A stretch of 64,000 bases of DNA. Source: a virus (Duplodnaviria > Heunggongvirae > Uroviricota > Caudoviricetes). A program made the position numbers and the translations under genes. The notes below the pieces were generated by a model, which was given only the letters and a program-made list of their open reading frames with translations, made no database searches and was not told the origin of the DNA. How positions within the stretch are numbered: position 1 is the stretch's first letter; every line of letters starts with the position of its first letter. The stretch is from IMG/VR virus record IMGVR_UViG_2706795421_000001, positions 22,247 through 86,246 of that record; one strand, written 5' to 3'. This document shows, in pieces, positions 1,103-64,000 of this stretch.

Positions 1103-1279
1103 ATGAGATGTAAAGGATGTAATAGGATAATTAAATATCCTAGTAAGAATTCAGTTTCAGGAAAGCATGAGGACCTATGCTCCCTGTGTCAAGGCCGTGC
1201 CAGGATGGTAGGCCCTCCTGAGGACTATGCATTCCCTCACGTCAAGCAGGGGTTGACACCAGTACGCAAGTGTGACTAG
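1103..1279 (+). CDS. small Cys-rich protein (CxxC...CxxC), questionable
   Basis: ATG at 1103 (MRCKGCNR...SLCQGR...). No clear SD. Lies in the AT-rich island. Confidence 0.25.
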   Translation: MRCKGCNRIIKYPSKNSVSGKHEDLCSLCQGRARMVGPPEDYAFPHVKQGLTPVRKCD

Positions 1280-1389: not shown

Positions 1390-1746
1390 ATGAGCAAGTT
1401 CGTAAAGGGCCAGAGTGGCAACCCTCGTGGTCGGCCCACCAAGGAAGCTCAGGCCCTCAAGGCGATGTCTGCCGGAGAGCTTGATCACATCCTCAAGAAG
1501 CTGAAGCCTGCCAGTGCCAAGGCCATTCAGCTCATGATCGACGAAATGACCAATGCGTCCCAGACATCTCCAGTCCGTCTCAAGATGGCTGACAAGGTGT
1601 TCGCTGCCTACCTGGCAGCCCTGAGGGCACAGGCGTCGATTGACGCAGCAAAGAACAAGTCTGACGGTGTTCCTGAGCAGGAGGATGAACCTTCGGCACA
1701 GGTCGTAGAATTCTCGCTCACTATGCCTGCCAAGAAAGGAGCATAG
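1390..1746 (+). CDS. terminase small subunit-like protein (N-terminal KGQSGNPRGRP motif)
   Basis: GGAG RBS. The GNPxGRP N-terminus is recalled from phage TerS-type proteins. A coiled region follows. Confidence 0.45.
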   Translation: MSKFVKGQSGNPRGRPTKEAQALKAMSAGELDHILKKLKPASAKAIQLMIDEMTNASQTSPVRLKMADKVFAAYLAALRAQASIDAAKNKSDGVPEQEDEPSAQVVEFSLTMPAKKGA

Positions 1747-3376: not shown

Positions 3377-4201
3377 TTGCAAATGACGTTCCAACCCACT
3401 CACGCACAAGCCAGCGTGATGTCTGACGATAAACACATGATAATTCTCTACGCCTCCCACGCAGGAGGTGGCAAGTCTCACCTCGTGGCTAAGTGGCTCA
3501 CAGAGCCCATGCACTTGGAAGGCTACCGAGGCTTGGCAGCCCGGAAAACGATTCCATTCCTCCTAGGCCCTGGCGGCCTTTCGCAAAAGATAGTAGATGT
3601 TGATCCCTCTCTTCGGTTCTTTCGGAGAGATTTGATGGTAAGGGCTCCAGATCGCAGGTCTTCAATAGTTCTTCGTGGTATCTCAAGCGGGGAATCAGTT
3701 CGGAGCCTGGCAGGATTCGTATTTCAAAGGGCAGCATTTGACGAAGCCAATCAGATCGACAGCAGCGCCATAACGTACCTACTGAGCAGGCTTAGGAGCT
3801 TCCAATGCCCCGAGGTGACTCCCCAGGTTTTGATGGCATTCTCTCACGGCGACTACTCCAACACCTTCATGGACACCTTGGTAAGGCCGTTTATCAAGAG
3901 TAACGACAGTCAGAGAGGCCACGGAGGGGTAGGGCCGATTGATTCCGAGAAGAGCGGTCAGACACGTTGGCTCACCTTTGTACGGGGGCAGCCTATTGTG
4001 GCCTCAAGTCAAGAGTCTTTAATGGACATCCTGGAGTGCTACTCAGGTCGAAAACCTGAACAAGGAGCCTTGATTCCGTACACACTGTATTACCAGCCTG
4101 AAGTCCACCCAGTAGTAAAGGAGCTTCATCCGGAGTACGAATCATTCATTAAGAACCTCCAACCGCCCCTTCGTACCTGTATGAGCGGCTATTGGGGGTA
4201 A
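3377..4201 (+). CDS. terminase large-subunit ATPase-domain paralog (TerL N-domain-like, no nuclease domain), 274 aa
   Basis: GGAGG RBS. Aligns by eye to the N-terminal third of the downstream TerL: HAGGGKSHL vs GAGAGKSYL, RGLAARKTIPFLLGPGG vs RGLITRRTTPQIKGPGG, AFDEANQ vs LVDEGQQ, LLSRLRSFQCPEVTPQ vs LMSRMRGPKCPEVEPH. Confidence 0.65.
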   Translation: MQMTFQPTHAQASVMSDDKHMIILYASHAGGGKSHLVAKWLTEPMHLEGYRGLAARKTIPFLLGPGGLSQKIVDVDPSLRFFRRDLMVRAPDRRSSIVLRGISSGESVRSLAGFVFQRAAFDEANQIDSSAITYLLSRLRSFQCPEVTPQVLMAFSHGDYSNTFMDTLVRPFIKSNDSQRGHGGVGPIDSEKSGQTRWLTFVRGQPIVASSQESLMDILECYSGRKPEQGALIPYTLYYQPEVHPVVKELHPEYESFIKNLQPPLRTCMSGYWG

Positions 4202-4780: not shown

Positions 4781-6199
4781 ATGACTAAGACAGTCATCGG
4801 TCCTAAGTCTCCGAAGCAGGAAGCGTTTATCAACTCCACTGCGAACATCACCGTGTTCGGTGGAGCTGCCGGGGCTGGTAAATCCTACCTCGGAGTGATG
4901 GACTTTCTAAAGCATGTGAAGCACCCGATGTTCCGGGGCCTGATCACTCGACGGACCACGCCTCAGATCAAAGGTCCTGGCGGCATCTTGGATAACTGCC
5001 TTCAGTTGTACAAGCAGTTTGACAAGAAGGTCAAATGGAAGGACAAGGACGGGAAATTCGTCTTCTCCTCGGGAGCTGAGATTCACCTTCGACACTTTGC
5101 CCACATCGACGATAAGGACAACTACCAGGGTCTGGAAATCAACGAATTCCTCGTTGACGAAGGACAGCAATACACCCTGGACATGTTGCTTTACTTGATG
5201 TCTCGTATGCGTGGTCCGAAGTGCCCCGAGGTTGAACCTCACATGAAGATCACCTGCAACCCTGATTATAACAGTCCGCTGCGTAAGTGGCTGACTTGGT
5301 ACCTGGACCCTGAGACAGGTATCCCGCTCCCCGAGAGGGACGGAATCACTCGGTTCTTCACTATCCAAAACGGAGACATGGAGTTCGCTGACACAGCGGA
5401 AGAGCTGATTGAGAAGTACAACCTGAAGTCTCCTCCCCTGACTTTCAAGTTCATCTCCGCCAACGTATACGACAACCCTGTCGTAATGGAGATTAACCCC
5501 CAGTACGTTGCCTGGCTTGAAGGTTTGAACCGGGTTGAGAAACTTCGACTGCTCCATGGTAGTTGGTTTGCCCGAGAAGAAGCAAGCGGCTACTTCAAGC
5601 GAGAATGGACTCCAATCATTCCGCTTAGGCCTACAGATACCGTGAGACAGGTAAGAGCCTGGGATATCAGCGGTACGCTGCCATCTGACTCCAACAAAGA
5701 GCCAGACTGGACAGCAGGCGTATTGATGAGCAAAGGCCGGAGTACGCTATACACAATCGAGGATGTGGTAAGGGACCGACGCCGGATTGGCGGGGTTTTT
5801 GAACTGATCCTTGAGACAGCAAGACATGACGGAGCTGACACGACGATCCTGATTCCACGTGATCCAGGAGCGGCAGGCCAGCACCTCGCATGGGACTTTG
5901 TTCGCCGACTGGCTGAGCACGGTTTCCATGCCAGGACCCGTCCAACCAACAAATCAAAGGTCACCCGGTTCGGTCCTTTTGCCAGCATGGCAGAGGCTGG
6001 AGGTGTTCAGGTAGTAGAAGGCCCCTGGAACGAGGCTTACCTGACGGAGCTGGAGGTGTTTGACGGAAGCCGAAATGTGAAGGACGACCAGGTGGACGCC
6101 ACCTCGGACGCCTACACTTATCTGGCATCTGACATCCACATTCCCAACTTCATCCCTCCGGACCTAACCCGACCCAACCCGCTGGCCATTGAACGATAG
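4781..6199 (+). CDS. terL: terminase large subunit
   Basis: 472 aa. Walker A GGAAGAGKSY, Walker B LVDEGQQ. C-terminal nuclease-like region with acidic residues (DPGAAG..., DDQVDATSDAY). Confidence 0.9.
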   Translation: MTKTVIGPKSPKQEAFINSTANITVFGGAAGAGKSYLGVMDFLKHVKHPMFRGLITRRTTPQIKGPGGILDNCLQLYKQFDKKVKWKDKDGKFVFSSGAEIHLRHFAHIDDKDNYQGLEINEFLVDEGQQYTLDMLLYLMSRMRGPKCPEVEPHMKITCNPDYNSPLRKWLTWYLDPETGIPLPERDGITRFFTIQNGDMEFADTAEELIEKYNLKSPPLTFKFISANVYDNPVVMEINPQYVAWLEGLNRVEKLRLLHGSWFAREEASGYFKREWTPIIPLRPTDTVRQVRAWDISGTLPSDSNKEPDWTAGVLMSKGRSTLYTIEDVVRDRRRIGGVFELILETARHDGADTTILIPRDPGAAGQHLAWDFVRRLAEHGFHARTRPTNKSKVTRFGPFASMAEAGGVQVVEGPWNEAYLTELEVFDGSRNVKDDQVDATSDAYTYLASDIHIPNFIPPDLTRPNPLAIER

Positions 6200-6208
6200 G
6201 AGGCCCTT

Positions 6209-7702
6209 GTGGCTCGGAGAAAGAGGAACGTCAGAAAGGCGGCAACAGCGCCGGTGCCATCGGCCCCCCGCCTTCGGCTGGGCGAAATCGGACACACGGG
6301 CCTAAAGCAAAGCGGTGGTGCAATCTACGAGGAAACTCGGGCTGAGCTACGGTTCCCTGAGAACCTGAACACCTTCAAGGTGATGGCCCGAGACGCCACC
6401 ATTGCAAGTGCCCTGGCACTGTTCGAGTTGATGGTAAGCCGTGTAGAGTGGAGTGTCAAGGGTGGTACAGAGCCTGACACTGCCATGCAGGAGAAGGTGA
6501 AATTCCTCTCCCAGGTCATGCACGACATGGACCACACGTGGTACGACTTCATCAAAGAGGTGACCAGTTGCTTCACTTACGGCTTCTCGATCCATGAGAA
6601 GGTGTACCGGAAACGGACGTGGGCAAACGGTTCCAAGTACAATGACAACAAGATCGGCCTGAAGCGTCTCCCTGTTCGTTCTCAGGAGACCATCAGGAAG
6701 TGGCGGTTCAGTGACGATGGTCGGGACTTCTTGGGTGCTGTTCAATCTCCCAAGCTGATTAGCGGATGGGAGCAGCGGTACGGCACCTATCTGAAGAATC
6801 TCCCGAATGGCGGGGATGAGATTTTCATTCCGAAAGAGAAGTTCTTGAACTTCCGCATCGACCCGCGACGTGACAACCCTGAGGGTAATAGCCCTCTTAA
6901 AAACGTGTACTTCGCCTGGAGTTACCGGACTGCCCTGGAAGAGCAGGAAGCCGTAGGTATTACCCGAGATATGAACGGTATGCCTACCCTGTACATCCCT
7001 CCTCGGTACATGTCTCCGGACGCTTCGGACGAAGAGAAGGCGATCTACGAGTATTACAAGAACGCCATGCGGAACATCACCATGAATGAGCAAACGTCGC
7101 TCATTCTTCCGCAGCAGTTTGACCCGGAATCCCGCCTACCGCTGTTCAAGTTCGAGTTGACCAGCAGTCAGGGTGGTAAGATGTACGACACCGACGCAAT
7201 CATCAAGCGTTGGGATAACAAGATTCTTCAGGTCCTGTTCGCTGATGTTCTGAAGATGGGCCAGGACAACGTTGGCTCCTACAGCCTGGCAGGTGCTAAA
7301 ACCAACCTGATGGCAATGGCCATTGAAGCACGTTTGCAGATGATTCGGGACGTGCTGAACAACGACCTGGTACCTCAACTGTTCCGGTTAAACGGATATC
7401 GCCCCGATGAAGAGTTCCCCACCTTCGAGTTCGGCGACCTCGACGAGATTGACTTGGATGTTTACTCCAAGGCGATCCAGCGAATGATGTCCGTCGGTGG
7501 CCTAGAGTTTACTCGTGATGTGGCCAACCGAAACCGTAAGGCCATTGGCCTGCCGGAGCTTCCCGCCACTCAAGCTATCGACCGAGAGGCTTTGCCCTTG
7601 GCAAACGACAGCAAGGCGGGAGAGGGGATGAAGACGGCGGGTGAAGGGACTTCTAAGAGCCCCAGCGCCCGCGATGATTCAACCGCAAACCAGGATAACT
7701 GA
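6209..7702 (+). CDS. portal protein
   Basis: 497 aa with a GTG start after GGAGG. Sits immediately downstream of TerL. Size and position fit a DUF935/Mu gp29-type portal. Confidence 0.8.
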   Translation: MARRKRNVRKAATAPVPSAPRLRLGEIGHTGLKQSGGAIYEETRAELRFPENLNTFKVMARDATIASALALFELMVSRVEWSVKGGTEPDTAMQEKVKFLSQVMHDMDHTWYDFIKEVTSCFTYGFSIHEKVYRKRTWANGSKYNDNKIGLKRLPVRSQETIRKWRFSDDGRDFLGAVQSPKLISGWEQRYGTYLKNLPNGGDEIFIPKEKFLNFRIDPRRDNPEGNSPLKNVYFAWSYRTALEEQEAVGITRDMNGMPTLYIPPRYMSPDASDEEKAIYEYYKNAMRNITMNEQTSLILPQQFDPESRLPLFKFELTSSQGGKMYDTDAIIKRWDNKILQVLFADVLKMGQDNVGSYSLAGAKTNLMAMAIEARLQMIRDVLNNDLVPQLFRLNGYRPDEEFPTFEFGDLDEIDLDVYSKAIQRMMSVGGLEFTRDVANRNRKAIGLPELPATQAIDREALPLANDSKAGEGMKTAGEGTSKSPSARDDSTANQDN

Positions 7703-21454: not shown

Positions 21455-22921
21455 ATGGCTGGATTGACTGACAAAGGGCTGGAAATCCGGTACCTTCCTG
21501 AGGTACTGGAGCAGTACCACAACCGTGCTCAAGACATCTTCTCTGACGAAGTTGAGCCTGGCGATGTAGTGGATACCAGTGAGAACTCAGCCCTGGGCCG
21601 AATGATCGGCGTTGTGGCACCAAGCGTAGCTGAACTGTGGGAAGCACTGCAAGAGGTTCATGACAGTTTCAACCCCAACGTGGCAACAGGCTACGCTCTG
21701 GATAACGAAGTCGCCCTGTCCGGTATCATCCGGTATGCCGAAGAGCCCACCAGGGCTCAGGTGGTGTTTGAGGGCAACTACAACATCGTGGTCAGCTCCG
21801 TAGGCTCTGTCTCCTCTAGCGTCACTCTGAGGCAGTTCCGGGTGATTACCCCGGTCCTGATGAACCTCCAACAGGCTTCAGGGGTAGCCTGGAGGGTTAC
21901 GGCAGTAGAAGCGGGTCATGAGTACAAGATTGGCTACTCGACCGATGGTGGCAGTAACTTCGTGTACGCCACTTACACTGCAACCGCCACAGATACAGCA
22001 GCGTCGATTCAGACTATGCTGGGCCAGAGAGTTTCTCAGTCGTGGACCAGCTTCGAAACACAGACTGATGCAAAGAACAACTACAACTGGGCACGTCGCC
22101 GGAATCGTCTCCAGATTGTCCACTTCGACTTGGACCCTCGTATCACTCCGATCAAGGTGGCGAAGCCTGGGGTGGTAGAGGATACCCAGATGGGGCCCTC
22201 GACTCAACTGCCCGGAACGATTGACACAATCTCGGTTCCGATCCTGGGCTGGGATTCGGTGTACAACCCCACCAACGCAGTATCTGGCAGGTTCCGGGAA
22301 ACGGATGTGGAACTCCGGGAACGGTGGAGGAACTCGAAGTTCTATCAGGCAGCGGCGATCTTGGAAGCGATGCTGGATGGTATGCACCAGGTTCCAGGGG
22401 TACGAGACGTAACCATCATCGAGAACGATACCAACAATCATGACTCGGTGCATAACGTCCCGCCCCACGCCTTCACGGTGATCACCCATGGAGGTGATGA
22501 TTCCGACATCGGGAAGATGATTTGGCAGAAGAAACCCACAGGCATCCAAGCCTACGGCGACACGGTGGTGCAGATCGCTGACTCCCAGGGCAAGGTTCAC
22601 TCCATCGGGTTCCGACGAGCCGAGGAATTGGAAGTACAGGTAAACCTGAACATCTCGGCTATTGCAGGGCAGGTTCTGCCAGGCGATGTGAAGGAACAGG
22701 TTACTGCTGCCATTCTGGCGTATCAAGATGGACTGGACAAAATCGGTAAAGAGGTGGTATACTCTAGACTATACACTCCAATTAACAGTGTTCCAGGGTT
22801 CCAGGTTAACAGCCTGACCATTGGAAAGAAAGGGGGCACCCAGGCCATGGCGAACATCCCTGTGGGGTACGACGAAGTGGCTATTTTCGATGCCACCCGT
22901 ATTGCAATTACGGTGACCTGA
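21455..22921 (+). CDS. baseplate J-like protein (488 aa)
   Basis: taaATG overlap. Position after W. Confidence 0.65.
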   Translation: MAGLTDKGLEIRYLPEVLEQYHNRAQDIFSDEVEPGDVVDTSENSALGRMIGVVAPSVAELWEALQEVHDSFNPNVATGYALDNEVALSGIIRYAEEPTRAQVVFEGNYNIVVSSVGSVSSSVTLRQFRVITPVLMNLQQASGVAWRVTAVEAGHEYKIGYSTDGGSNFVYATYTATATDTAASIQTMLGQRVSQSWTSFETQTDAKNNYNWARRRNRLQIVHFDLDPRITPIKVAKPGVVEDTQMGPSTQLPGTIDTISVPILGWDSVYNPTNAVSGRFRETDVELRERWRNSKFYQAAAILEAMLDGMHQVPGVRDVTIIENDTNNHDSVHNVPPHAFTVITHGGDDSDIGKMIWQKKPTGIQAYGDTVVQIADSQGKVHSIGFRRAEELEVQVNLNISAIAGQVLPGDVKEQVTAAILAYQDGLDKIGKEVVYSRLYTPINSVPGFQVNSLTIGKKGGTQAMANIPVGYDEVAIFDATRIAITVT

Positions 22922-55367: not shown

Positions 55368-55443
55368 CAGATTTTCACAGCCGGGCGTAAGGTACTCGAC
55401 AGATTTTCACCGAGCGCCCAAGGTACTCGACAGATTTTTACAG
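55359..55443. repeat. iteron-like array B: three 22-bp direct repeats GGTACYYGACAGATTTT(C/T)AC at 31-32 bp spacing
   Basis: Copies at 55359, 55391 and 55422. The first overlaps the stop codon of the 55155 ORF. Confidence 0.6.
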
Positions 55444-55504
55444 AGACAGGTATCAAAAGAACTGTCAAGTTTCCCTCCCCAGGCGGCCCGACCCCTCGGC
55501 CTCT

Positions 55505-55544
55505 TGTAGCACGTCAACTTCCCGCTGTAGCACGTCACTCCCCC
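55505..55544. repeat. two direct repeats TGTAGCACGTCA(A/C)T(T/C)CCC
   Basis: Copies at 55505 and 55526. Confidence 0.4.
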
Positions 55545-55812
55545 GGTAAGTAGCTCCCTATCTATCCCTCCCTCACCGAAACTACCTTTCACATGCAATC
55601 ACCATGCCAACCTTGAAAAGCGCGCAGGGGCGGTGTTTGTCTCCGGCGCCCGGCCCCTCCGGCCTGCTTTCCCGCATGCCTACAGAATGCCAGGATGAGC
55701 CTGGAGTGTCAAGCCTTGGGCCAGGATTTTTCATCGCCGACCTGGCATGCTCTTTGCTACGCTTGCGCGTTCCTCTACCTGGCGTTGCCGGAGCAATTTC
55801 TTAAAAAAGGGG

Positions 55813-55840
55813 GTTGACTTCTAACCGTGCCACCGTAGAA
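55813..55840 (+). promoter_or_regulatory. sigma70-like early promoter TTGACT-N16-TAGAAT
   Basis: Consensus elements at 55813 and 55835. Confidence 0.6.
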
Positions 55841-55880
55841 TGACCCTCAAGCAAGGCAAACAACCTGTAGGAAGGTAACC

Positions 55881-62061: not shown

Positions 62062-62113
62062 ATCGACTAATTATCACAGCCCCGGCTTGCCGGGGCCTCT
62101 CACAGGAAAGGCC

Positions 62114-62440: not shown

Positions 62441-62454
62441 CACAGGAGGAAACA

Positions 62455-62673
62455 TGAAAATTCAGATTGGCCAGCATACCCTGGAAATTACAGCCCCGAT
62501 CCGCAACAACCACCTAGCTACAGAGTATTGCAGTGTGTCCTTGAACGGGAAACGTATCTACGGAGGTTTCAACCCTTTTGAAGCCTGGGGACTGTTCGAA
62601 GCCCTGGAGAAAGCCCTACTCACTGTCGAAGCTCAGGCAGCGCCCCTAGAGGAAAGCTTGCATGACTGGTGAT
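62455..62673 (+). CDS. hypothetical protein (72 aa)
   Basis: CAGGAGG sits 6 nt before the ATG at 62455. Confidence 0.45.
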
Positions 62674-62880
62674 CTGAGCAGCCCCTTCGTCCCCTATGCC
62701 TCAGTGCCAGAGCCTATGTTTGAATTCGAATGGTTCGACGTAGGGAATGCCGTCATCGAGCTAGAGCCAGGATGGCTAGTAGGGGTCGGGTTTGGAGTGG
62801 ATAGCTTATTTGTGCTCACCTACGTCGAAAAGGAACCATTCGCCGAGTGGCTGCCCTGGACCCCCAACCTGAGGTCATAG
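62662..62880 (+). CDS. hypothetical protein (72 aa)
   Basis: Overlaps the upstream gene by 12 nt. Last gene before the repeat-dense noncoding region. Confidence 0.45.
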   Translation: MTGDLSSPFVPYASVPEPMFEFEWFDVGNAVIELEPGWLVGVGFGVDSLFVLTYVEKEPFAEWLPWTPNLRS

Positions 62881-64000
62881 ACTCCTATTCGGTGTGACTA
62901 GGTTTCTATTCGGTCGCCATAATAATGACCCTGGGGAGGGTCCTACGGACCGTCACGATAACAGGGGAATTATGGCCATGTTAACAGGGCCTAGAGGCTT
63001 CTACGAAGCCAGTTTAGCCTAGGCAGTACCCTAGGATGGGAATGGCCTTGAAAAGGCCGTATGCGCGCCCCCAGGGGGCCTATCGGGGAGGGAGTGGGCA
63101 AGTGCCCCCTCCCCGTGTCTAAGCCTTACCAACTGGACTCTACGAGTCTATTTCAACAGGCTTCTACGAAGCCATATGATCACCAGGCATAACACCAATC
63201 ATGCGCAGAGCATCCGGGTAGGATGTTCAAGCCATTGGTCCCTCCTCTCTGTCAAGAATTCTGTAACATTCACTAGGTCACGTCGTGACCCATTGTGTAA
63301 CAGTCAGCAGACTGTCATTCGGGCAGGGGCATTTGCCCCCTTCCTGCCCTCCTAAACTGACTGGCTTCGTCGAAGCCTTCCCATGCCACCAGCCCGATTA
63401 TGTAACAGCCTGGCCATGACCATGGCCCATTGTGTAACGGCATTGCATGCCAGGATCACCAGACAGCCTCAGCCAGGGCAATTGTGTAACCATTCCCCAT
63501 CCCAGCAGCAGAATATCCCCAGCCAGGAAGCCCATGACCACCCCCATTGCATCTCAGGTGATCAGCCCCTGGAATACGGCCATTGTGTAACGGAACACAG
63601 GGACACCAATGCCTACCCATGCCCTAGTAGGCTTCTTCGAAGCGAGCTAATGCCGGCGTCTCTCTACCCTAACGGGAAGAGTTCCCCCTTTATTATGGCG
63701 ACCGAATAGAGAATGCCCGGTTCATGCGGCCTGTAGGCCATTACAATGGCCAGCCATGGGAAGGATTGCATTACACAATAGGCTTGCCCTCACCCATGAA
63801 TTGACAGGCCTCTACGAGGCTAGCCAGGCTCAGCTAGTGAGCTTGAGTTACACAATTCATCCTCACATATTGCCCCACTCCCCATGCCACACCCCTGACA
63901 TTCAACCCCATGCCCCAGCTTCAGCAGATACATTTGCTTCGACGAAGCCTGGATATTTCCAGATCATGACGGCGCCTCATGGCCACCCTAGGGTCTTGTT
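62881..64000. repeat. 1.1-kb noncoding region dense in short repeats and palindromes (candidate ori/pac/regulatory hub)
   Basis: No ORF with an RBS. CATTGTGTAAC occurs 4 times forward (63291, 63428, 63480, 63581) and twice reversed (63769, 63848). Six or more GGCTTCnnnGAAGCC palindromes. 14-16 bp palindromes GGTCACGtCGTGACC, GGCCATGacCATGGCC and GGCCATTacAATGGCC. A 20-bp inverted repeat CTATTCGGTCGCCATAATAA (62911) pairs with TTATTATGGCGACCGAATAG (63683). Confidence 0.6.
63084..63115. other. second copy of the nested hairpin (CGGGGAGGG-AGT-GGGCA-AG-TGCCC-C-CCTCCCCG)
   Basis: The 28-nt core is identical to 1029..1056. Outer stem ends differ in a base-pair-preserving way. Confidence 0.6.

Follow-up and report, generated by a model that had tools for sequence, protein, structure and literature searches.

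Repeated words and dyad symmetries at the right genome end and direct terminal repeat of a Nankokuvirus phage, and their possible part in packaging

The stretch of DNA analysed here (the window; 64,000 nucleotides (nt), positions 22,247 to 86,246 of virus record IMGVR_UViG_2706795421_000001) ends in a region of about 1.1 kb, 62881-64000, that follows the stop codon of the last early gene, ORF155, and is crowded with short repeats and palindromes. Positions are those of the window unless a record is named. The last 1.4 kb of the window matched the last 1.4 kb of Pseudomonas phage vB_PaeM_PAO1_Ab03 (Ab03; LN610573) at 100%. Ab03 belongs to Nankokuvirus and has a linear record of 86,246 bp, in which the window occupies positions 22247-86246, as an overlap check confirmed; window position 64000 is the final base of that record. 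A further 39 Nankokuvirus records matched the terminal 1.4 kb at 91-98%. The original prediction, made from the window sequence, had treated the region as a single locus. Its first 349 bp were found to be unique, forming a gene-free lead-in, and its last 771 bp to be repeated at both genome ends as a direct terminal repeat (DTR). Record positions 1-771 and 85476-86246 were identical, and the identity ended precisely at both boundaries, the same sequence thus being present once at each genome end (Table 1).

The boundaries agree with published data. Essoh et al. (2015) derived a 771-bp DTR for Ab03, Ab04, Ab11 and Ab17 from two fixed-end read peaks, and a DTR of 756 bp for Ab06 owing to a 15-bp internal deletion. 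Henry et al. (2015) reported a doubly covered region of ~750 bp in CHA_P1, PAK_P3 and PAK_P5 from read coverage, the terminal region beginning with AGCCATT and finishing with CTTGTT in all three (their Table S1); these are the words found at window positions 63230 and 64000. In a 2026 Hi-C study of PAK_P3, PhageTerm assigned 'DTR (T7-like)' termini at ~63 kb and the virion genome was linear and non-permuted. The homologue of the region in PAK_P3 lies at 62443-63516, which matches that position. Further published support, on the transcription context of PAK_P3, comes from Chevallereau et al. The homologous region was reported to be untranscribed, and gp113, at the predicted genome terminus, was the sole untranscribed gene of PAK_P3. 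Among the database records, those of the Ab series, G1 and PS24 begin or stop at identical boundary bases, with PS24 stopping precisely at the left DTR boundary, and the CHA_P1 record contains the repeat twice, in tandem. At the right boundary, CTTGTT was retained among the aligned relatives. There is hardly any doubt that the linear, non-permuted Nankokuvirus genome physically ends on the right in this region, which comprises the genome end and the DTR, and the suggestion that it was a physical or functional end was borne out. The region itself, from a sequenced phage of a therapeutic type, is already annotated and published, and finding it is not a discovery. The best explanation overall, and in our judgement a probable one, is that it carries the terminus-generation and packaging signals of a short-DTR phage.

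To compare the region among relatives, Ab03 and 11 Nankokuvirus phages were aligned from ORF155 through the DTR to ORF02, and the columns of 62881-64000 were classified. All relatives were at least 91% identical and represent few lineages; the column classes were compared on one and the same tree, which is a valid comparison. Open reading frames (ORFs) of up to 108 aa are present mechanically in the region, and GenBank records differ in the ORFs and strands that they annotate across it. Four candidate ORFs showed no third-position excess in the alignment and had indels of 1, 15 and 25 nt; in several of the ORFs, indels in relatives shift the frame. In ORF155, the control gene, the variable sites numbered 3, 3 and 14 for the first, second and third codon positions; in ORF156 they numbered 5, 9 and 6, with a 1-nt indel in two relatives. 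No region ORF of at least 49 aa matched Pfam, and the sole PHROG match among them was that of ORF156 to a 49-aa-long profile of unknown function. The gp113 gene of PAK_P3 is absent from the RefSeq record, and its equivalence to ORF156 is assumed. Hidden genes were rejected on the lack of a coding signal in the codon-position tests and on the single 49-aa PHROG match, in agreement with the original statement that the region holds no credible ORF. A search of Rfam (E <= 1) gave nothing in the region, the only match (E = 0.94) lying upstream at 62079-62111 and below threshold. Promoter-like and terminator-like matches in the region were at the level of shuffled sequences.

The repeats and palindromes listed in the original prediction were all present, with small corrections. 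The count of at least six GGCTTC-NNN-GAAGCC palindromes rose to a family of seven when variants were included: GGCTTC-N3-GAAGCC is exact in dyads 1, 3 and 4 and carries one mismatch in dyads 5 and 7, and dyads 6 and 2 are covarying variants (GGCCTC..GAGGCT and GGACTC..GAGTCT, respectively). Five of the seven matches to GGCTTCNNNGAAGCC within one mismatch in the window lay in the region, compared with 0.22 in shuffles; the two outside it each had one mismatch. In the reconstructed 86-kb genome, both GCTTC-N3-GAAGC and TTGTGTAAC were restricted to this locus.

The second set of repeats consists of CATTGTGTAAC and related words. Six copies, four forward and two inverted, had been claimed. Six were indeed present, of which only three are exact, all of them forward (63291, 63428 and 63581). 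One forward (63480) and one inverted (63847-63857) copy have one mismatch, and the other inverted copy (63769-63779) has two. Adding the degenerate forward copies TTCTGTAAC (63259-63267) and GATTATGTAAC (63396-63406) gives six forward and two inverted sites, here termed ATTGTGTAAC-type sites. All five matches to CATTGTGTAAC within one mismatch in the window fell inside the DTR (0.72 in shuffles). Each DTR copy has seven TGTAAC hexamers, and the other 84 kb have two, against ~23 expected; among 2016 non-palindromic hexamers, TGTAAC ranks 7th in depletion. Like most other depleted words, it includes TAA and rare codons, and further words with TAA or TAG share the depletion, so its avoidance outside the DTR is weak evidence and was given little weight. 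A third repeated word, CCCATGCC, had been overlooked; four of its eight copies in the 64-kb window are in the DTR, with 3.0 expected for the whole window.

Palindromes with 6-bp arms reached 15.2 per kb in the region against 3.0 per kb elsewhere, the highest density of any 1.1-kb window in the genome. The palindromes of 14-16 bp reported at 63276, 63411 (here 63412) and 63736 were confirmed, and the paired CCTAGG sites and the GGCCTTgaaAAGGCC and GCCCCCaGGGGGC hairpins were also seen. Single-stranded DNA folding was better than in shuffles for both the lead-in (z = -3.2) and the DTR (z = -2.6), which is expected because of the local palindromes. Six-base palindromes were found at 8.8 per kb genome-wide against 16 expected; with 21.4 per kb, the region was not depleted. 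Chance origin of the repeats was rejected by the shuffles and the genome-wide counts. As a separate observation, 13 six-bp palindromes (including CTGCAG, GAGCTC, CTCGAG, GTCGAC and GGATCC) had zero copies in 84 kb, with 3-44 expected. This genome-wide avoidance is consistent with restriction-site avoidance, and it has two exceptions, namely the terminus and an AT-rich intergenic region near the start of the window.

Table 1. Features of the right genome end of Ab03 and a candidate packaging gene (window positions; strand + or -, with a dot for features given without one; caret, cut position)
Feature	Position	Strand	Remarks
ORF155, last early gene	62662-62880		From the Ab03 annotation
Unique gene-free lead-in, 349 bp	62881-63229	.	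Between ORF155 stop codon and DTR; absent from left genome end
Left arm of perfect 21-nt inverted repeat, TCTATTCGGTCGCCATAATAA	62905-62925	+	In unique DNA; starts 325 bp and ends 304 bp upstream of DTR
Lead-in hairpins	62927-63079		GACCCTggggAGGGTC (62927-62942), CCTAGG-N6-CCTAGG (63018-63035), GGCCTTgaaAAGGCC (63044-63058), GCCCCCaGGGGGC (63067-63079)
Dyad 1, GGCTTC-TAC-GAAGCC	62996-63010	.	Arms invariant; spacer TAC in 2 phages, reverse complement GTA in 9
Nested GC-rich hairpin, C-GGGGAGGG-AGTGGGCAAGTGCC-CCCTCCCC-G	63084-63115	.	28-bp core 63086-63113
Dyad 2, GGACTC-TAC-GAGTCT	63135-63149	.	Variant arms; perfect palindrome GGACTC-TTC-GAGTCC in 10 relatives
Dyad 3, GGCTTC-TAC-GAAGCC	63159-63173	.	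Invariant in 12/12 sequences; ends 56 bp before left DTR boundary
Left DTR boundary, inferred cut site GGATGTTCA^AGCCATTGG	63218-63237	.	1/20 columns varies in 11 relatives
Right copy of 771-bp DTR	63230-64000	.	Identical to record 1-771; repeat_region annotated at 1-771 and 85476-86246
Six forward ATTGTGTAAC-type sites	63259-63591	+	TTCTGTAAC (63259-63267), CATTGTGTAAC (63291-63301), GATTATGTAAC (63396-63406), CATTGTGTAAC (63428-63438), AATTGTGTAAC (63480-63490), CATTGTGTAAC (63581-63591)
DTR palindromes	63276-63751		GGTCACGtCGTGACC (63276-63290), ACAGTCagcaGACTGT (63300-63315), GGGGCAttTGCCCC (63326-63339), GGCCATGacCATGGCC (63412-63427), GGCCATTacAATGGCC (63736-63751)
Dyad 4, GGCTTC-GTC-GAAGCC	63363-63377	.	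Arms invariant; spacer GTC, GAC or GAA
Third repeated word, CCCATGCC	63380-63914	+	Four forward copies (63380, 63616, 63881, 63907)
ORF156/ORF01, 49 aa	63398-63547	-	Annotated in record; judged not a gene
Dyad 5, GGCTTC-TTC-GAAGCG	63630-63644	.	GGCCTC-TTC-GAGGCG or close variant in nine relatives
Right arm of 21-nt inverted repeat	63690-63710	-	Inside DTR (DTR positions 461-481), hence also at left genome end
Two inverted ATTGTGTAAC-type sites	63769-63857	-	TATTGTGTAAT (63769-63779), AATTGTGTAAC (63847-63857)
Dyad 6, GGCCTC-TAC-GAGGCT	63807-63821	.	Arms invariant; five spacer variants including reverse-complement pair GAA/TTC
Dyad 7, TGCTTC-GAC-GAAGCC	63935-63949	.	Ends 51 bp before right DTR boundary
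Right DTR boundary and genome end, CCTAGGGTCTTGTT^	63987-64000	.	Followed by AAATACC in concatemer or at left end
ORF52, first gene of late operon, 118 aa, DUF5681	1390-1743	+	N-terminal KGQSGNPRGRP

The alignment was then used to compare the motifs with the non-coding background, in which 144 of 736 columns (19.6%) were variable. In the arms of the seven dyads only 4 of 84 columns varied (p = 3e-4), in the 9-mer cores of all eight ATTGTGTAAC-type sites 2 of 72 (p = 8e-5), in both 21-nt inverted-repeat arms 0 of 42 (p = 3e-4) and in the arms of the other palindromes 9 of 112 (8%; p = 0.002). Dyad arms and ATTGTGTAAC cores thus vary 4-7 times less than the surrounding non-coding DNA. The CCTAGG pair was not conserved in the relatives. 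The 3-nt spacers of the dyads were variable in 10 of 21 columns, which is elevated over background (p = 0.004) and differs from the arms of the same family with p = 8e-6. In dyad 5 the change seen in nine relatives is a compensatory T:A to C:G replacement that keeps the dyad symmetry. Three spacers occurred among the phages as exact reverse complements, TAC/GTA in dyad 1, GAA/TTC in dyad 6 and AC/GT in the palindrome at 63412, where some phages have AC and others GT. These small palindromes therefore appear to have flipped as units, and we read the flips as the signature of hairpin-mediated template switching. Taken together, the pattern indicates that the motifs are under purifying selection, and that in the dyads the symmetry is constrained and the orientation and spacer sequence are free.

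As a more distant comparator, the sister genus Pakpunavirus (PaP1, PAK_P1, Ab02 and C11) was used; a search of IMG/VR with the ORF02 protein had given only KPP10. Pakpunavirus shares about a quarter of its proteins with Nankokuvirus (Henry et al. 2015, Table S3). Its DTR is 1165-1190 bp long (1165 bp in Ab02), the ends of PaP1 having been proved by run-off sequencing. The terminal DNA of the two genera could not be aligned. The genomes are nevertheless colinear, with the DTR at an equivalent place between two early-gene arms, and dyads with 6-bp arms and a free spacer of 3-4 nt are found both upstream of and within it. The Ab02 family, GA(A/T)AGC-N3-4-GCT(A/T)TC, has two copies upstream of the DTR and at least four inside, with arms that differ from the GGCTTC/GAAGCC of Nankokuvirus. 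These arms were retained in six phages that are merely 77-100% identical, and spacers of paralogous Ab02 dyads are also reverse complements (TTC/GAA). Both genera have the words ATTGTGT and TGTAAC, the latter clustering upstream of the repeat in Pakpunavirus. Two features of the Nankokuvirus terminus differ further, in that its DTR is without a gene whereas that of Pakpunavirus holds an HNH-endonuclease ORF, and in that the long-range 21-nt inverted repeat has no counterpart in Pakpunavirus (Ab02).

The cut sites of the two genera resemble each other. The left cuts are GGATGTTCA^AGCC in Ab03 and GATTGTGTTA^AGCG (AGCGAC) in Ab02, and the right cuts GGGTCTTGTT^AAATAC and GGGTTCGTGGTT^AAGTAG (AAGTAGC), respectively. 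All four boundaries share TGTT(N0-2)^A, with ..A^AGC (TGTT..A^AGC) at the left cuts and GTT^AARTA at the right cuts. Moreover, the Pakpunavirus left cut falls within ATTGTGTTA, which is nearly the word repeated six to eight times in the Nankokuvirus DTR. Three further observations concern these termini. The Pakpunavirus DTR contains an ORF of ~200 aa (2227-2820 of locus L017 in Ab02, and homologues) that is annotated as an HNH (homing) endonuclease in several records. Just upstream of the DTR, PAK_P1 and PaoP5 have a 20-bp tandem duplication of the left cut-site word CCGATTGTGTTAA. In PAP-JP (~1886-2012 of locus L012), a 127-bp duplication from the GCTTCTACGAAGCC dyad to GGTCACGTCGT doubles the left cut site; this duplication may be genuine, or it may have arisen in the assembly of the genome end.

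A 20-bp inverted repeat at 62911 and 63683 had been described as bracketing an insertion or invertible element. The repeat is present; it is 21 nt long, and its coordinates were off by ~6 bp. The perfect arms enclose 764 bp, which is what a segment resembling a miniature inverted-repeat transposable element (MITE), or an invertible one, would look like. The bracketed segment, however, straddles the DTR boundary, and the left genome end holds one arm. The sequences flanking the arms differ (AGGTT and GAATG), so there is no target-site duplication. The segment has the same orientation in all 11 relatives and is never missing, the left arm being 100% identical in the ten relatives with sequence covering it (the Epa17 record excluded). 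No recombinase or transposase gene lies nearby. The 21-mer had no other copy in the window and none in 185,579 bacterial genomes, and among IMG/VR contigs it was found only in KPP10. A mobile or invertible element is accordingly extremely improbable. A host-derived or mobile repeat was likewise rejected, the 21-mer and the 28-mer of the nested hairpin described below being absent from those 185,579 bacterial genomes.

The lead-in contains a cluster of GC-rich hairpins and three dyads of the family. Since the dense hairpin cluster begins 47 bp past the ORF155 stop codon and the DNA downstream is silent in PAK_P3, the region could be a transcription insulator: on circular or concatemeric templates, RNA hairpins serving as terminators or as sites of processing would keep transcripts of the early operon in the right arm from running through the junction into that of the left arm. 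Weak terminator-like hairpins, moreover, take their T-rich tails from the two arms of the 21-nt inverted repeat. Such sites were, however, no commoner than in shuffles (3 found against 1.9 expected), and they are weak. None of the lead-in hairpins has the T-tract typical of an intrinsic terminator. The family dyads have 6-bp stems and 3-nt loops, again without a U-tract (T-tract in the DNA), and they extend 900 bp into untranscribed DNA. Pakpunavirus has a canonical terminator after its last gene and yet retains its dyad family, and the direct ATTGTGTAAC array would be left unexplained. An insulator is thus a quite unlikely account of the region as a whole, although the first hairpins after ORF155 may have a terminator role at the RNA level.

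The 'conserved nested hairpin' noted at 63084 was found, and a 28-bp sequence at 1029-1056, central in the AT-rich divergent intergenic region, is its exact twin. The 28-mer was absent from the bacterial genomes, and in IMG/VR it was found only in KPP10. In Epa17 the terminus copy has diverged alone and the copy at 1029 is unchanged, so concerted evolution of the twins was not seen.

Within 600 bp, the ATTGTGTAAC-type sites repeat a conserved 9-11-mer six times forward and twice inverted, exceeding the minimum of three direct repeats by which iterons are recognized. The region was therefore considered as a replication origin, in which the forward array would be iterons for a phage initiator and the flanking palindromes auxiliary elements. 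As in the iterons of the lambda origin, there are four to six direct copies of a conserved word of ~10 bp with dyad symmetries nearby. Four of the sites share one helical face, a subset picked post hoc. The authors of the PaP1 study placed a putative origin at the genome end from GC skew, and the GC skew of the DTR is strongly negative (-0.16). Unlike the lambda origin, the array has no adjoining AT-rich region, initiator gene or host-factor sites: the minimum is 37.5% GC per 40 bp, which leaves no AT-rich unwinding element, and neither a DnaA box within one mismatch nor an IHF consensus was found in the region, nor a replication gene nearby. Cumulative GC skew tracks gene orientation and has its minimum at record positions 21-23 kb. 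Beside this minimum, the divergent intergenic region at ~960-1150, with 35% GC, is far more origin-like. In PAK_P3, in which this AT-rich region is 3.5 kb from the end of the record, the Hi-C coverage skew ran from the record extremities to the centre, with the termini at neither; because the direction of the skew is not stated in the text of that paper, an origin at the DTR is no more than disfavoured. Overall, an origin at the terminus appears improbable, and the suggestion to that effect in the original prediction is poorly supported. In its wider limits (~912-1390, ~35% GC), the AT-rich intergenic region has a divergent promoter and is the second most palindrome-dense place in the genome; it is plausibly a replication origin or a regulatory hub. 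A partition centromere, a further candidate of the original prediction, is poorly supported, as the phage is virulent and has no par genes nearby.

The interpretation that the motifs serve genome-end formation and packaging draws its main argument from the conserved architecture, in which the sequences have co-diverged, together with the similar cut sites. Repeated and dyad elements adjoin the cleavage positions and are conserved beyond the neutral level, as looked for in a pac-type site. Among the functions originally proposed, a multi-site protein-binding locus or pac site appears to be the best supported, through the selection on the motifs and their counterparts in the sister genus. Judged on these comparisons, a packaging role of the motifs has about an even chance.

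Replicative DNA, whether circular or concatemeric, has the repeat once per unit, and in the Hi-C study of PAK_P3 the circular signal rose from 3 to 10 min. In such DNA (a concatemer, or a circle with one DTR copy), the region would join the 282 bp that follow the left DTR, giving a silent junction of ~1.4 kb that would carry the cis signals for genome-end formation. The other half of this junction (record positions 772-1053) lies outside the window. It includes repeated CCCCAGG words, a 46-bp tandem duplication with CTGGAATTTGAAA in Ab03, VL12 and PAK_P5 that is single in others, and, ~40 bp ahead of ORF02, a TTGACA-17-CACAAT promoter that is conserved in full.

At the junction, the terminase would nick or cut sequence-specifically after GGATGTTCA on the left and after GGGTCTTGTT on the right, and the 771 bp between the cuts would be duplicated by strand-displacement synthesis. 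In the T7/T3 model, the terminal repeat is duplicated in this way, by strand displacement between the cuts. The forward ATTGTGTAAC array in the left half of the DTR is likely to offer a multi-site platform for an oligomeric, small-terminase-like packaging protein. The seven dyads may mark and organize the junction, either as binding sites of a symmetric (dimeric) protein or as short hairpins that can be extruded, with one dyad ending 51-56 bp upstream of each proposed cut. With one arm of the 21-nt inverted repeat to each side of the left cut, the repeat would probably bind the same factor in both orientations.

Known packaging systems offer partial parallels. The pac signals at the concatemer junction of T7 and T3 comprise a pacB binding site and pacC cut sites, and arrays named SRL and SRR flank the T7 repeat. 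Like T7 and T3, Nankokuvirus has a linear non-permuted genome, a few hundred bp repeated identically at its two ends, conserved sequence-specific cuts, short repeated words clustered in and beside the repeat and a strong host-type promoter just inside the left repeat; the homologous termini of PAK_P3 were classed as T7-like by PhageTerm. Unlike them, it is a myovirus whose large terminase is of the T4 type (Terminase_6N/6C), it lacks a phage RNA polymerase, its repeat is 771 bp rather than 160-230 bp, and its motifs share no sequence with theirs. In lambda cosB (R-sites) and SPP1 (pacL and pacR boxes), the small terminase is believed to assemble into an oligomer on short repeats near the cleavage site. 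The several short repeats tens of bp apart beside a cleavage site recall this arrangement, here as a likeness of sequence organization only. The ends are exact repeats here and cohesive or headful ends there, and the lambda and SPP1 sites lie in or adjoin the terS gene, whereas the terminase genes are 25 kb away from the Nankokuvirus terminus. In Bacillus DTR phages, shared terminal sequences have been interpreted as terminase recognition or cleavage sites (PMC5418689).

Several points weigh against a packaging role. We infer the function of every motif from its sequence and its conservation, and the substitutions and independent lineages behind the conservation tests are few in number. Any palindrome might show such spacer flips for mutational reasons alone, and the lead-in hairpins could act at the RNA level on early-operon read-through. 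The distance from dyad to cut is 56 and 51 bp in Nankokuvirus but ~148 and ~169 bp in Ab02, which gives no ground for a fixed 'ruler'. The six forward sites showed no significant helical phasing overall (R = 0.60, p = 0.12). Finally, no small terminase is annotated; ORF52, a DUF5681 protein, is a candidate solely because of its position, having matched neither a named family nor a solved homologue.

Two other genes near the start of the window are relevant to terminase. The large terminase gene is located at 4781-6196. Upstream of it, at 3377-4198 (+), is a 274-aa ORF with a TTG start, of which only the last 59 aa are annotated in Ab03 (ORF55). Its product is a paralogue of the large-terminase ATPase domain (26% identity over 254 aa, E = 2e-15; Walker A GGGKS) without a nuclease domain, and it matched PHROG 15848, 'terminase large subunit'. 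A second, nuclease-less terminase ATPase could be relevant to end processing.

An alternative that is compatible with packaging, and could coexist with it, is that the locus binds an architectural or nucleoid protein: a phage-encoded binder, perhaps carried in the virion, would tether or loop the ends, aid circularization via the DTR and silence the junction, and would not direct the terminase. At 3 min of PAK_P3 infection, the Hi-C study found a loose loop of 14 kb over the early genes, with two gene-free, untranscribed anchors of which one is on the termini side, and proposed an encapsidated factor, Gp160, resembling a nucleoid-associated protein. The gene for Gp160 (58 aa, CxxC...CxxC) lies next to the exact 28-bp hairpin twin. 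Dyads that keep their symmetry and leave the spacer free would also suit a dimeric binder. The text of the Hi-C paper, however, states no anchor coordinates. No second locus in the genome shares the dyads or the array, and therefore no partner anchor was found by motif, and the hairpin twins are 23 kb apart rather than 14. Gp160 had no Pfam match, and the cross-genus similarity of the cut sites would be left unexplained. A purely architectural function was thus regarded as rather unlikely.

Two places in the window touch on this loop. At 1103-1279 (+), ~50 bp downstream of the hairpin twin and in the AT-rich region, is an ORF that is unannotated in Ab03 and homologous to PAK_P3 gp160; its 58-aa product (MRCKGCN...CSLCQ...) is zinc-ribbon-like. 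The second is a gene-free region of 0.5 kb in the early arm, at 55368-55880, with three direct copies of GGTAC(T/C)(C/T)GACAGATTTT, two of TTGTAGCACGTCA and a strong TTGACT-17-TAGAAT promoter, which is the 41-nt promoter repeat of Henry et al. (2015). A CCTAGG pair (55105 and 55129) lies ~240-260 bp upstream. This region had no motif in common with the terminus. Together with a gap at record positions 7186-7638 it brackets ~15 kb around the termini, so it may be a Hi-C loop anchor.

To return to the packaging signals, it is tentatively proposed, at a low level of confidence, that the dyads and the ATTGTGTAAC array are the cis sites of an 'end-organizing' system common to Nankokuvirus and Pakpunavirus, whose specificity has co-evolved. 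Its binder would be a small phage protein, which could be the small terminase or, like the Gp160 zinc-ribbon protein, a factor packaged in the virion, and binding would place the terminase nicks ~50-56 bp downstream of a dyad at each boundary. If true, such a system would hold the ends in the early PAK_P3 Hi-C loop, linking packaging signals to the three-dimensional organization of the infecting genome.

The anatomy of the motifs appears to be undescribed in the publications consulted. What is added here is the selective pattern on the motifs, the spacers that flip and, in Pakpunavirus, an architecture that runs parallel and cut sites that are similar; the motifs are useful packaging leads and not a new kind of element. 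The motif map gives concrete targets for mutagenesis and electrophoretic mobility shift assays of how the terminase finds and duplicates the ends, a question that concerns most short-DTR myoviruses, and it suggests which sequences may underlie one of the anchors of the early PAK_P3 genome loop. The exact ends and their cis signals also matter for engineering and rebooting Nankokuvirus genomes in phage therapy.

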